A DNA stretch of 64,000 nucleotides from an uncultured Verrucomicrobiae bacterium (GTDB lineage Bacteria > Verrucomicrobiota > Verrucomicrobiia > Chthoniobacterales > UBA10450), in contig CAVYXA010000003.1 of the NCBI GenBank assembly GCA_963772365.1, forward strand, positions 576,001 through 640,000, read 5' to 3'. Shown here piece by piece: positions 35,501 through 38,500 of this stretch. Position 1 is the stretch's first letter. The number at the start of each line of letters is the position of its first letter. Position numbers: made by a program.

Positions 35501-38500
35501 GCGCACGGTAAAGAAGATCGACAACTGCAACCGCCCGAGTTCGTTTTGTTCGTAAACGACCCGGGATTGTTGACGCAACCTTACGAACGTTATTTGCAGG
35601 CACAGATTCGCGAAGCTGAGCCATATCCAGGCCTGCCGGTTTTTTTGACGCTACGCCCGCGTAGCGAGAAAGGAAAATAGCTTCGCCGTCGCTGGAACTG
35701 CGGTTGCGAATCGAACATTCGGCGAGAAAATCTGTCTCAAAAACACACATGAAATCGACTCAGGAAATCACGCATGAAGTGCAAGAGCTTGGGCAATGGA
35801 TTCCCGCGGTTCGTCAACAGGTTGGCCACGTCGTCATCGGGCAGAAATATCTGATCGATCGCCTTTTGCTCGGGCTCCTCGCCAACGGGCATATCTTGCT
35901 GGAAGGCGTTCCCGGCCTGGCAAAGACCTTGGCTGTGAAGACGATGGCCGCCTGTATTCAGACCGGTTTTCAGCGCCTGCAATTTACGCCCGATCTGTTG
36001 CCAGCGGACTTAATTGGCACCCTGATTTACAATCCGCGCACCGGAGAATTTTCGACAAAGCTCGGCCCGATTTTCTCCAATCTGATTTTGGCCGACGAAA
36101 TCAATCGCGCGCCGGCGAAGGTGCAGAGCGCGTTGCTCGAAGCGATGCAGGAACGTCAGGTTACGATTGGGGAAAAAACCTATCCGCTGTCTGATCCGTT
36201 TCTGGTACTGGCGACGCAGAATCCGATTGAGCAGGAAGGCACGTATCAATTGCCGGAGGCGCAGCTCGATCGATTCATGCTGAAACTGAATATCGGCTAT
36301 CCGCAAAAAATCGAGGAACGCAAGATTCTCGATTTAATGGCCACTTCCGCGCCCGACCTGCGTGTCAATCCGGTTATTGAGCCGAAGCAAATTATCGCGT
36401 CCCGGGATGTCGTGAATCACATCTACATCGACGATCGGGTGAAGGATTACATTGTCGATGTTGTCTGGGCGACGCGAGAGCCTTCGACTTACAATTTGAA
36501 TCTCGAGGGGTTGATTCGCTACGGCGCATCGCCGCGGGCCACGATCTATCTGGCGCTGGGTGCGCGAGCCCATGCGTTTCTGAATGGCCGCGGCTACGTG
36601 ACACCGCAGGACGTGAAAAGCATCGGTCCGGATGTGTTGCGCCATCGAATCATCGTGAGCTACGAAGCCGAAGCCGAGGCGGTAACGAGCGAGACAATCA
36701 TCGAAAGGATTTTCGCCGGATTGCCGGTGCCGTGAGTGCATGCGAGCACGTCATTCCGAGCGAAGTCGAGGAATCCCGTGGCGCTGCCTGAAACGTAACT
36801 TCATGGAGTCCTTGGGCTCGGCTTTACTGCGCTCGGGGTGACAGTCTGGAGTATGCAACATCAAAATTACTTCGTTTACATTTTGACGAATGCAGATCGT
36901 CACACGGTTCTTTACATCGGTGTCACAAACAGCCTCGAACGCCGCGGTAGCGAACACTCACTCGGTCGTGGGAGCGTTTTTGCAAAGCAGTACAATGCGC
37001 ACAAGCTGATTTATTACGAAGCCTATCCCGATCCGACGACGGCAATCGCTCGAGAAAAGCAGCTGAAACGATGGCGCCGGGCCAAGAAAGAAGCCCTTAT
37101 CGCACGGACCAACCCGGAATGGAAGGATCTGGTTGAAGAAATGTACGCTGTTCGAACTAGCGGAGGTTCTCGGTAGTGCCGCGGGATCCCTCGACTCCGG
37201 TCGCTGCGGCGACCTCCGTTCGGGATGACGGCCATGCGACCGCCACGGCTGAAATCCTCAAGAAAATTCGCGCTCTGGAAATCAAGACTCGCGGTCTGGT
37301 GGAAGCTGCTTTCGCGGGCGATTATCACAGTGTCTTCAAGGGACGGGGAATGAACTTCTCCGACGTCCGCGAATACCAGCCGGGCGACGATATTCGGGCG
37401 ATCGATTGGAATGTCACGGCGCGGCTCGGAAATGCGTTTGTAAAGCAGTTCACCGAAGAGCGCGAGTTGACGGTCATGTTGATTGTCGATGTTAGCGCAT
37501 CGGGGAATTTCGGGAGCACGACACAATCAAAGCGCGAGCTGGCGGCTGAAGTTGCCTGTCTGCTCGCGTTCAGCGCGATCCGGAACAATGACAAAGTAGG
37601 ATTGCTCCTCTTCACGGATCACGTGGAATTGTTCATTCCGCCCAAAAAAGGGAGCTCCCACACGCTGCGGCTTATTCGCGAGATTTTGTTTTTCAAACCG
37701 CAGGGCCGCGGGACGGAGCCGGGATTGGCCCTCGATTATCTTAACAAAATTGTGACGCGTCGATCGGTCGTTTTTCTTATTTCGGATTTTCAAGCGCCGG
37801 ATTTCTCGCAAGCGCTTGCCGTAACCGGCCGCCGTCACGATTTGATTGCTGTTCATATTCATGATGAGCGCGAGAAAGTGTTGCCCAATATAGGGATCAT
37901 TACGCTGGAGGACGCAGAGACCGGCGAGCAAATCGAGCTGAACACAACTGATCGCGGCACGAGGAGTCGTTTTGCCGAGGAAGCGGAGCAGCAGGATGCG
38001 GAACTGTCGAAGTTGCTTCGACGAAACAATATCGACTCCATCGCGTTACAAACCGGCCAGGATTATCTACCTGCCTTGCGATCGTTTTTTAAACAGCGCG
38101 AACGTCGTTTAGCCATTCGATAAGAAATGAAAATTGGAATTTTAATTGCGGAAAAATTCAACGATATCGCTCCGCCGATTGATTATTCATTGGTTCCGCC
38201 GTGGTTGGTGTTCGTCGCGGTGTTCGTCGGTTTGACAGTATTGGGATTGATTGTGTGGCTGATCACACGGTCACGTAAGCAGGTCGTGCCGACCAAGTCA
38301 GCTCGTGCACATGCACTGGAACAGCTCGAGCGGATGCAGGGCGAAGTGGAACGAACGCAGCCGTATCGATTCAGCATCCATGTGTCCGACGTTCTCCGGC
38401 GTTACGTGACCGAGCAGTTTAACCTGCCCGTTACGCGTCAGACTTCCGTGGAATTTCTCTCGTCACTGGCGAATTTCTCGACATTTTCCGAAGAGGAAAA

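Follow-up and report, generated by a model that had tools for sequence, protein, structure and literature searches.

A probable Ssn nuclease cassette between inverted hairpins of a local dialect in a verrucomicrobial genome

In the genome of an uncultured Verrucomicrobiae bacterium, a gene for a small GIY-YIG nuclease lies inside a copy of an interspersed hairpin repeat. This raises the question whether the gene belongs with the repeat or landed in it by chance and, if the two belong together, whether they form a mobile element of which the gene-less hairpins are derivatives, as a first-pass annotation had proposed. We analysed the locus within a window of 64,000 nucleotides (the whole stretch of DNA studied, to which all coordinates refer), together with the host genome and those of its relatives. 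The host is described as a soil bacterium, and the repeat that brackets the nuclease gene is the commonest in its genome.

The gene, of apparent Ssn type and here called ssn (36853..37176, plus strand), encodes a 107-aa single-domain GIY-YIG nuclease (PF01541, E 6.8e-16). Pfam searches confirmed both this domain and the annotated position of the gene between moxR, which encodes an AAA_3 ATPase (35704..36735, plus strand; PF07726, E 3.6e-64), and a DUF58/vWA gene (37176..38123, plus strand; PF01882, E 2.3e-82). The inverted repeat described around the gene is real: the longest inverted pair that a search of the 1-kb region returned, 36757-36788 with 37172-37203, has 32-nt arms that are 81% complementary. 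The element as a whole nevertheless extends beyond the 36757..37203 first assigned to it and spans 480 nt, from GTCAT at 36750 to ATGAC at 37229. The moxR stop codon TGA occupies 36733-36735, and the left SRM-like unit (36750..36775, plus strand) begins 14 nt further on; it reads GTC-ATTCC-GAGCGAAGTCGA-GGAAT-C and belongs, under the unit rule given below, to stem class TCC. Adjoining it is an inner left arm found by the inverted-repeat search, CCGTGGCGCTGCC (36776..36788, plus strand), which is homologous to the inner halves of the type-b doublets described below and pairs, G-T pairs included, with an inner right arm, GGTAGTGCCGCGG (37172..37184, plus strand), that overlaps the ssn stop codon TAG (37174-37176). 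The right SRM-like unit (37185..37229) reads GTC-ATCCC-...-GGGAT-C on the minus strand and is assigned by the same rule to stem class CCC; its loop is enlarged and contains a small additional palindrome. The inverted-repeat search also revealed a degenerate extra inverted unit, R' (~36803..36842, minus strand), between the left unit and the ATG of ssn, with the end ...GCGCTCGGGGTGAC, and the stretch 36750-36842 alone resembles a 93-nt doublet. R' is present at two related loci (L011 and L020) and missing from all other relatives. A scan of 36600-37400 against Rfam, with E values up to 5, gave zero matches.

Each arm is itself a small hairpin in which three variable stem positions co-vary. When only GTC-AT-xyz-loop-z'y'x'-AT-C was required, 256 units were found in the genome, compared with 73.5 ± 7.9 in 10 dinucleotide shuffles; when units were collected without requiring complementarity, 146 of 162 were fully complementary (35.1 ± 4.9 in shuffled sequence). 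The units retain a GTC that precedes the palindrome and a C that follows it, both of which were critical features in tests of the Ssn family, small GIY-YIG nucleases that bind NTS/SRM hairpins in ssDNA and cut just upstream of them (Chenal et al. 2025, Nat Commun 16:2388, PMC11893778). The belief that no GIY-YIG family had yet been linked to interspersed palindromes is therefore mistaken, the link having been published, with biochemistry, in that paper. Literature searches on Ssn found no follow-up work beyond it, and searches on GIY-YIG nucleases with palindromes, MITEs or terminal inverted repeats returned nothing else of relevance for bacteria.

The published SRM search sequence, HGTCWYN(0-2)YYVSBRHN(0-5)WNVSBRGN(0-2)RNCYNB, accepts three NTS instances as we implemented it. 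It matched neither flank of ssn (0/2), and its 18 matches across the genome equal the 17.9 ± 4.6 obtained after shuffling; it matched at 2/80 related loci, compared with 45/79 loci of a proteobacterial subclade. Its authors used the sequence for searching (Chenal et al. 2025, PMC11893778); family membership is not defined by it. We conclude that the local units are a dialect missed by the published pattern. Unlike the NTS, which has an 8-9-bp stem and a 3-nt loop, they have a 5-bp stem and a conserved interior of 11-12 nt, GAGCGAAG(T)CGA. Under DNA nearest-neighbour energies a unit on its own makes a weak hairpin (-1.9 to -4.4 kcal/mol, z -0.2 to -0.7). Two units joined head to head fold stably as one long hairpin (mean -21 kcal/mol); this arm-arm fold was preferred in 110/146 strand folds, and both local stems were formed in 0/146. 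Long arm-arm pairing was rejected as the conserved structure, since the arms differ at exactly those positions that co-vary within units; energy models still favour the long fold despite this covariation.

A more tolerant census counted 223 units. Of these, 146 are joined head to head as 73 doublets, which are 72-128 nt long (mode 90-93), and 77 stand outside such doublets. The repeat is as real and abundant as first annotated, its earlier end motif being counted 63 + 51 times, but the tally of 55 hairpins and 72 single arms did not stand, because two stems, GTT (53 units) and GTC (12 units), escaped the pattern used for it, GTCAT[TC]C[TC]. Nearly all doublets (72/73) are heterotypic, that is, they combine two different stems, and six stem classes coexist in this genome with one ssn gene. 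The doublets are strongly intergenic: 46 of the 73 have no overlap with proxy ORFs, and ORFs take up 88% of the genome. The genes around them are 64% tandem, 22% divergent and 14% convergent, against a spacer background of 58/23/19%. A gene-less type-b doublet with stems TCT and CCC lies elsewhere in the window (55868..55959, strand-neutral). Both doublet types have a counterpart in the flanks of an ssn gene, type b at the locus described here and type a at a locus in a relative (L374 in G019), where the left stem is GTT and the right stem TCT; homology between cassette ends and doublet halves extends past the unit, and in both lineages the ssn ORF occupies the tip of a doublet-like hairpin. 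Comparison thus shows the doublets to be one element with the cassette, minus its ORF, alike both in their pair of differing stems and in their inner arms.

To place the protein, we compared it with the published Ssn nucleases. PF01541 covers residues 5-79 of the 107, no further Pfam family scored above cut-off, and neither NCBIfam nor PADLOC assigned a family. In a 15-member alignment Y9, Y21, R31 and E68 are invariant, so the GIY-YIG core retains its catalytic Tyr, Tyr, Arg and Glu; Y9, Y21 and E68 correspond to the residues whose replacement (Y6A, Y17A, E64A) inactivated SsnA of Neisseria meningitidis (Chenal et al. 2025, PMC11893778). The core spacing is 12 and 47 in the window protein and 11 and 47, as for Y6-Y17-E64, in typical family members, which are one residue shorter. 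All five of five genomes with the exact published NTS contain GIY-YIG matches to the window protein (45-56% identity, E 1e-18 to 2e-26), and at the three matches inspected (L222, L223, L224) an NTS(+) lies upstream and an NTS(-) downstream. A further candidate for an NTS-gene-NTS locus, L097, was discarded as an array of NTS doublets with no gene. The only intact small GIY-YIG gene that we found in Maribellus maritimus (L029) is 56% identical to the window protein, and this species is scored SsnA/cd10448-positive in Supplementary Data 4 of Chenal et al. (2025, PMC11893778). In Neisseria lactamica NS19 the window protein matched only a 91-aa YhbQ-like gene without NTS flanks (E 0.005); the 15-member family profile matched nothing in N. 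lactamica NS19 or N. mucosa, a PF01541 search of these two genomes returned only the 91-aa YhbQ-like gene and uvrC-like genes, and no Neisseria was among the best 80 matches of an NTS-flanked betaproteobacterial homologue. Since these two genomes yielded no Ssn-type gene, membership in the Ssn family rests on the chain of homology and on the table of the paper.

Among UPF0213/YhbQ small GIY-YIG proteins (PDB 1ZG2, 1YWL) and Slx1 are the nearest solved structures by sequence (E 4.3e-7 and 0.02). The UPF0213/YhbQ type shares the single-domain size of the window protein but is another subfamily, without the C-terminal KKW-R-K-LI--NP-W-DL helix region, and its members in this genome are linked with tRNA genes, not SRM hairpins. 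The claim of a single coding copy holds within the subfamily of the window protein, which has 1 match in the genome; the genome also has 7 small GIY-YIG genes of the other, tRNA-linked subfamily plus uvrC. For ssn the median dN/dS was 0.087 (~0.09) over the 17 of 78 pairs with computable dS, the rest being dS-saturated, a ratio by which the gene is evidently under purifying selection.

We then asked how regularly gene and repeat occur together, using 80 homologous loci from many phyla and 1600 control placements within those loci. A forward unit lay within 200 nt upstream of the gene at 59/80 loci (1.4% of controls), a reverse unit downstream at 50/78 (2.2%), and units on both sides at 43/78 (0.3%). 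Thus, gene and repeat belong together, as had been proposed. Each genome in this survey carries its own stem letters, which flank its gene on both sides. Among 41 relatives, ssn was present in 14/24 genomes within the family and in 1/16 outside it, and the unit pattern in 21/24 and 1/16, respectively; the six highest unit counts (67-128) all occurred in ssn-bearing genomes.

The moxR|DUF58 junction was compared in 29 relatives. Seven carry ssn there, and at least 7 have an empty spacer of 24-45 nt followed by a native ATG; two loci (L239, L254) retain deletion remnants of the cassette, and three genomes (G008, G024, G031) have a different small, selfish-looking cassette (PF05635) at the same place. 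The empty spacers contain no doublet, and therefore the cassette would have arrived together with its arms. The ssn state is scattered on the host tree, with 7 changes, at least 2 of which are forced by well-supported branches; as 16/27 inner branches of the MoxR+DUF58 tree are open, all that the tree establishes is that genomes in the ssn state do not make up a single clade. By comparison of these junctions, it was evidently within this bacterial family that the cassette entered a moxR-DUF58 spacer of ~30 nt. At 14/14 loci the start codon of DUF58 and the stop of ssn overlap. In the window the DUF58 reading frame continues upstream across the right unit, and the earliest start in it, GTG at 37176, overlaps the ssn stop, so that the right unit is predicted to be read as the DUF58 N-terminus (VPRDPSTP...). 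By the same comparison the cassette appears to be now wired into the operon, with its right unit translated.

Taken together, the locus at 36750-37229 is probably an Ssn cassette, a small GIY-YIG gene between two inverted cognate hairpins of a local SRM dialect. As such it adds an example to the Ssn nuclease-hairpin system, whose first description dates from 2025, and does not establish another kind of element. Like SsnA of N. meningitidis, the window protein is a single-domain GIY-YIG protein of ~100 aa; as in Ssn/NTS, its gene is bracketed by inverted hairpin motifs that start with GTCAT and end with ATC, tens to hundreds of copies of the motif are scattered over the genome, mostly between genes, and each lineage has its own variant. 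Unlike in the published Ssn/SRM systems, the units here are mostly heterotypic inverted doublets, and one gene faces six stem classes. By extension from the four homologues that Chenal et al. tested, the protein would bind, in ssDNA, the hairpin made by one strand of a unit and would nick that strand a few nucleotides 5' of GTC; it would ignore dsDNA, RNA and the complementary strand. The protein would have further putative binding and cutting sites in the ~220 other units of the genome, of which two thirds are paired as inverted doublets. In N. meningitidis an altered stem sequence abolished activity even though the structure was kept (Chenal et al. 2025, PMC11893778), and since six stem classes are present here, many units may not be substrates.

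The arrangement also recalls REP/REPIN-RAYT systems, whose nuclease is an IS200-like HUH Y1 enzyme: a single-copy nuclease gene is flanked by the genome's commonest hairpin repeat, inverted doublets occupy spacers without target duplications, and the hairpin is recognised in ssDNA, which for the window protein would hold by analogy. E. coli BIMEs likewise pair two unlike REP types. Ssn and RAYT are unrelated in enzyme fold and chemistry: a GIY-YIG enzyme makes a hydrolytic nick, whereas the HUH tyrosine forms a covalent intermediate able to rejoin DNA; we know of no strand-transfer activity of Ssn. With IS200/IS605 the cassette shares small size, lack of a terminal duplication and subterminal hairpins that, again by analogy, would be recognised as ssDNA, but in IS200/IS605 both hairpins lie on one strand, which is excised and reinserted, whereas the units here are inverted. 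Chenal et al. (2025, PMC11893778) likened NTS-ssnA-NTS to an insertion sequence and compared it with REP/RAYT; doublets, REPINs and MITEs have 0 occurrences each in their main text. By this analogy, the system may be an element that acts on ssDNA much as REP/RAYT does, either domesticated or selfish to this day. Candidate roles for it in the cell would be control of ssDNA that enters or replicates, or the spreading of the repeats.

Does the cassette move? One reading, compatible with the Ssn cassette and adding present or past movement to it, is that the L-ssn-R cassette is an autonomous mobile element with the GIY-YIG nuclease as its sole protein, and that the gene-less doublets are non-autonomous, REPIN-like copies mobilised in trans. 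The presence or absence of the cassette at one orthologous spacer, scattered on the host tree, speaks for it, as do the deletion derivatives there, the strongly intergenic doublets and the terminal inverted repeats common to coding and gene-less copies, whose unlike stem pair and inner arms agree in two ssn lineages. That all doublets but one are heterotypic is expected if whole doublets were copied, and Chenal et al. themselves describe the layout as identical to that of an insertion sequence. Yet no target-site duplication rose above shuffle level at the 73 doublets (k 2-6, offsets 0-2), although single-strand transposons and REPINs need none. Recent copies are likewise missing: over 946 type-a doublet pairs the highest full-length identity was 93%, with arms 86% and middles 53% identical (43% when shuffled). 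In a 400-kb comparison with the sister genome G008, 7/138 elements had both flanks; one doublet was shared, in decayed form, which shows that doublets can be old residents, and the others had diverged spacers. With coding flanks only 75-82% identical, insertion points are not definable in these spacers, and no clean empty site or insertion polymorphism of a doublet was found against G008. Further, the strands that Ssn could cut are opposite at the two ends, which gives no excised single strand as in IS200/IS605; Ssn is known to nick one strand in ssDNA, not to transfer strands, and GIY-YIG nucleases are not, to our knowledge, known for joining DNA. Finally, gene and repeat numbers disagree for type a: G019 has the type-a gene and 6 units only, whereas the host genome has many type-a units (~100) and no type-a gene, a tblastn search for a type-a ssn remnant having found none, in agreement with the first-pass annotation. 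Mobility of the hairpins as MITEs is plausible on this evidence, and the full reading of an autonomous element with copies mobilised in trans remains a tentative one that we would not favour.

If instead the doublets came first and ssn were a selfish, homing-type ORF that copies itself into their tips after cleavage and repair, its position exactly at the hairpin tip in both lineages would be explained; GIY-YIG homing endonuclease genes are known, and the junction evidently also accepts the PF05635 cassette. We regard such homing as improbable, because the cut site as published falls 5' of GTC, beyond the unit, and not in the doublet loop (PMC11893778), the empty moxR|DUF58 spacers have no doublet, so that the arms came with the cassette, and one ssn copy stands against 73 doublets. 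That the gene landed by chance in a pre-existing hairpin, or that the hairpins are terminators or RNA elements unrelated to it, would fit their frequency in spacers and the stable long folds of the doublets, and the first-pass annotation had itself named chance landing as an objection. The survey contradicts it, with flank association at 66/80 loci across phyla versus ~2% of controls and stem letters particular to each genome on both sides of the gene. The absence of Rfam matches, a gene context close to the spacer background and hence not terminator-like, and the lack of RNA binding by SsnA (Chenal et al. 2025, PMC11893778) point the same way, and we consider a coincidental association extremely unlikely.

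Because its central idea was published in 2025, the Ssn cassette described here opens no new field; it extends the published picture. The association of Ssn with hairpins is wider than reported and includes a whole subclade, from Verrucomicrobiota, Bacteroidota, Bacillota and Patescibacteria, with dialects invisible to the published pattern. No SRM enrichment is tabulated for Chthoniobacter, Hymenobacter, Maribellus and Mucilaginibacter, although they bear the gene (Chenal et al. 2025, PMC11893778), in line with the blindness of the pattern to these dialects. The comparative data also bear on the origin of the repeats, which Chenal et al. left open (PMC11893778): in two lineages, gene-less doublets are the cassette minus its ORF, and one junction is found empty, filled and decayed. 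One nuclease gene facing six co-varying stem classes is a natural experiment on specificity, which matters for the proposed use of Ssn as programmable ssDNA cutters. It is possible, if rather doubtful, that Ssn cassettes are autonomous mobile elements at present or were so until recently, with the heterotypic SRM doublets as their non-autonomous copies; since ~100 type-a units are kept without a type-a gene, such mobility would mean that several hairpin dialects can be served by one nuclease. If true, the REPIN/RAYT lifestyle would have been invented a second time, independently, and IS catalogues would lack a class of prokaryotic mobile elements.

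The ssn gene (36853-37176) encodes 107 aa in which GIY-YIG (PF01541, E 6.8e-16) is the sole Pfam family above the cut-off. It lies in a cassette of 480 nt (36750-37229) between moxR (35704-36735, PF07726) and a DUF58/vWA gene (37176-38123, PF01882). A left unit on the plus strand, GTCATTCCGAGCGAAGTCGAGGAATC (36750-36775), stands 5' of the ORF, and a right unit on the minus strand (37185-37229), reading GTCATCCC...GGGATC, stands 3' of it. Inward of both units are mutually pairing inner arms of 13-14 nt (36776-36788 and 37172-37184). An inverted-repeat search joined units and inner arms into an inverted repeat of 32 nt (81%), confirming the first-pass annotation's observation that the gene is bracketed by the genome's own repeat units. 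A degenerate third unit (~36803-36842), between the left unit and the ssn ATG, is also present in loci L011 and L020 and is absent from the other relatives at the moxR|DUF58 junction. In all 14 loci with ssn at this junction, a DUF58 start codon and the ssn stop overlap (as TAATG, TGATG, TAGTG or ATGA) and the DUF58 frame continues through the right unit (PRDPSTPLRSARDD); in the window (37176-37240) the frame is open across the right hairpin unit, with the N-terminal extension VPRDPSTP... Thus, the repeat unit would be translated as an N-terminal extension of the DUF58 protein. Purifying selection acts on ssn: where dS was unsaturated (17 of 78 pairs), the median dN/dS is 0.087.

In the window's genome (G000; 3.35 Mb in 6 contigs, 90.3% complete), every "arm" of the repeat amounts to a small hairpin unit of its own. 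It opens with GTC; AT and three variable letters make up the 5' side of the stem, a conserved interior follows, and the 3' side, the complement of those three letters and then AT, is closed by C. The interior is GAGCGAAGCGA in 58 units and GAGCGAAGTCGA in 21. A rule based on geometry only found 256 units, compared with 73.5 +/- 7.9 in 10 dinucleotide shuffles. When units were gathered without requiring complementarity, all three variable pairs were complementary in 146 of 162, as opposed to 35.1 +/- 4.9 (maximum 49) in 1000 shuffles of the 3' triplets. The stems fall into six classes (GTT/AAC 49, TCT/AGA 44, CCT/AGG 17, TCC/GGA 17, CCC/GGG 9, GTC/GAC 8); since related copies inherit their stem letters by descent, these figures represent a handful of compensatory events and not 146. 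Covariation supports, contrary to energy models, the formation of local stems within units: the models scored single units as weak hairpins and preferred the long arm-arm hairpin in 110 of 146 strand folds of doublets. The unit interior could form a GCGAAGC mini-hairpin and sheared G-A pairs, neither of which is given a score by the models used.

A tolerant census yielded 223 units, 146 of them in 73 head-to-head doublets of 72-128 nt (mode 90-93) and 77 elsewhere. All doublets except one (72/73) combine two unlike stem classes. Type a (n=44) joins GTT with TCT or CCT around inner arms ATCTCYRATCATT; type b joins TCC with CCT, CCC or GTC around inner arms ATCCCGYGR. By a crude ORF proxy that assigns 88% of the genome to ORFs, 46 of the 73 lie wholly outside ORFs, and the gene context of the doublets is similar to the spacer background. 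The window holds a type-b doublet without a gene at 55868-55959 (92 nt, stems TCT and CCC), and its cassette is of type b both in its stems (TCC on the left, CCC on the right) and in its inner arms. When the cassette ends, taken from unit to start codon and from stop codon to unit, were aligned with doublet halves, homology extended past the unit on both sides; this puts the ssn ORF at the hairpin tip, and cassette and doublets are one element. A type-a ssn gene or remnant was not found by tblastn in G000, a genome only 90% complete. In the relative G019, a paralogue (L374, 52% identical) between sucB-like and lpdA-like genes has GTT on its left, TCT on its right and type-a inner arms; unlike flanks also occur at other paralogues in the family (e.g. 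TTC/GTC, GTC/TTC, TCC/TTC).

The association of repeat and gene is general beyond G000. Among 598 candidate stretches, 562 homologous loci were found, and the best 80, which span Verrucomicrobiota, Bacteroidota, Bacillota, Patescibacteria and other phyla, were analyzed. A forward unit lay within 200 nt upstream of the gene in 59/80 and a reverse unit downstream in 50/78; units flanked both sides in 43/78 and at least one side in 66/80. Elsewhere in these loci, 1600 control placements gave corresponding rates of 1.4% upstream, 2.2% downstream and 0.3% for both. In this sample, the 23 upstream and 12 downstream units in the "wrong" orientation reflect neighbouring doublets, stem letters are particular to each genome, and the two flanks share a stem in 31 of the 43 both-sided loci and differ in 12. 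With at least one unit at 66 of 80 loci against about 2% in controls, the link between a GIY-YIG nuclease and hairpins that had been claimed from the window is right. The accompanying statement that this nuclease family had not been linked to palindromes is out of date, the link having been published by Chenal et al. 2025 (PMC11893778).

As described there, N. meningitidis SsnA (94 aa, cd10448) has the NTS repeat (CGTCATTCCCGCGMAVGCGGGAATCYRG) as its target, binding it solely in the form of ssDNA and cutting that strand only, a few nt upstream of NTS; cutting requires GTC before the palindrome and binding requires C after it. Three more homologues cut beside their own motifs, and an SRM repeat is nearby in 71% of homologues, on both sides in 42% (PMC11893778). 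In five of five genomes with exact NTS, the window protein matched GIY-YIG genes (45-56% identity, E 1e-18 to 2e-26), and the three such genes inspected had NTS(+) upstream and NTS(-) downstream. In Maribellus maritimus, the sole small GIY-YIG gene found intact is L029, 56% identical to ssn; the species is scored positive for an SsnA homologue and cd10448 in Supplementary Data 4 of PMC11893778, where Chthoniobacter flavus, Hymenobacter aerophilus and Mucilaginibacter glaciei are positive for both as well. Y9, Y21, R31 and E68 are invariant in a 15-member alignment of ssn proteins. N. lactamica NS19 and N. mucosa, queried with the window protein, the 15-member profile and PF01541, gave only uvrC-type genes and a YhbQ-like gene of 91 aa that lacks NTS flanks. 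Good indirect evidence, by way of the NTS-bearing genomes and M. maritimus, suggests that the window gene is an Ssn. The closest solved structures to its protein are UPF0213 proteins (1ZG2, E 4.3e-7).

G000 also carries a second class of small GIY-YIG gene, UPF0213/YhbQ-like (86 aa) and tRNA-linked, which lies outside the window (C1:376950-379200, C6:263-558). Downstream of tRNA-Met are five tandem copies of 321 nt, every one consisting of an ORF and, after it, a duplicate of the tRNA's 3' part; further such ORFs follow tRNA-Asn and, near a contig end, tRNA-Lys. The arrangement resembles that of an element whose insertion at tRNA 3' ends duplicates those ends.

The published SRM pattern matched neither flank of the window's ssn, and its 18 sites in G000 compare with 17.9 +/- 4.6 in shuffles. 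It matched 2 of the best 80 of 562 loci and 2/109 flank units. The same implementation recognises NTS instances, and of 79 loci homologous to a betaproteobacterial gene with NTS flanks it matched 45, including 25 with matches on both sides. The local units differ from the published SRM in their 5-bp stem and long conserved interior, and the pattern misses them because of this geometry. Accordingly, the SRM counts tabulated in PMC11893778 do not exceed expectation in genomes that carry ssn (C. flavus 68 vs 70.9, H. aerophilus 15 vs 32.4, M. glaciei 5 vs 10, M. luteus 16 vs 16.6). The words "doublet", "REPIN" and "MITE" are absent from the main text of that article; variants like the window's may be among the 29 curated SRMs of its Supplementary Data 5 or in its Fig. 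2c. In an alphaproteobacterial MAG (L097:1-671, L223:1-2400), canonical NTS inverted doublets form long tandem arrays (period ~171 nt) beside ssn, of which the portions of PMC11893778 consulted make no mention.

The orthologous moxR|DUF58 junction was inspected in 29 relatives. The ssn cassette is present in seven (L233, L238, L240, L242, L244, L248, L252), and the junction is empty, with a 24-45-nt spacer and a native ATG, in at least seven (L235, L236, L241, L245, L253, L259, L261). Of six genomes from other families of the order, five are empty here. At L239 (151 nt) the left unit, the final ~40 nt of ssn with TAATG and the right unit remain; at L254 (73 nt), nothing is left except the final nt of ssn, TAATG and a right unit in decay. 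L252, L239 and L245 come from unpublished genomes (G010, G015 and G021, respectively), whose publication requires the depositors' permission. L247 holds a different doublet, and in L234, L243 and L255 the site is occupied by a PF05635 gene between inverted repeats of its own. A remnant of that gene is left in L250. The junction is a hotspot for small cassettes. On a poorly resolved MoxR+DUF58 tree the ssn state requires 7 changes, at least 2 of them forced by well-supported branches. In L234:2381-2854, from the sister genome G008 of the same genus, the gene replacing ssn encodes 157 aa (E 1.9e-29); PF05635 is the 23S rRNA intervening-sequence protein, a four-helix bundle, and other genera also carry it here in place of ssn, between inverted repeats GTGAGAGG.../...CACCTCTCAC.

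The first-pass annotation had read the short hairpins as MITEs of a GIY-YIG-encoding element. In pairs of type-a doublets the arms are 86% identical and the middles 53% (43% when shuffled); this far better conservation of the arms, which points to selection on each copy, conversion or turnover, counts in favour of mobility. Against it, no target duplication was found at the doublets of G000, no near-identical copies were found among 946 pairs (best full-length identity 93%), and comparison with G008 revealed no clean empty sites: one doublet is also present there, decayed, and two others are replaced by unrelated spacer. The MITE reading is unproven. In G008, spacers on contig C6 (~158500, ~296050, ~68000; L262-L281) hold another palindromic repeat, GGGAAACTGTCAGTTTCCC, where G000 has SRM doublets.

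We surveyed G000 and 40 relatives (41 genomes), accepting ssn homologues up to E 1e-8. Homologues occurred in 14/24 other genomes of the family versus 1/16 outside it, and the unit pattern in 21/24 versus 1/16, in kin that are not independent of one another. Unit counts of 67-128 were confined to ssn-positive genomes (G000 128, G028 108, G011 100, G012 76, G015 67, G017 67), as compared with 0-24 in ssn-negative family members. A simple dose relation fails for G019 (a type-a gene, 6 units) and G031 (a gene, 0 units). We assign the cassette and its repeats to the Ssn/SRM kind; their hairpin dialect is divergent, and the arrangement in doublets resembles that of REPINs.
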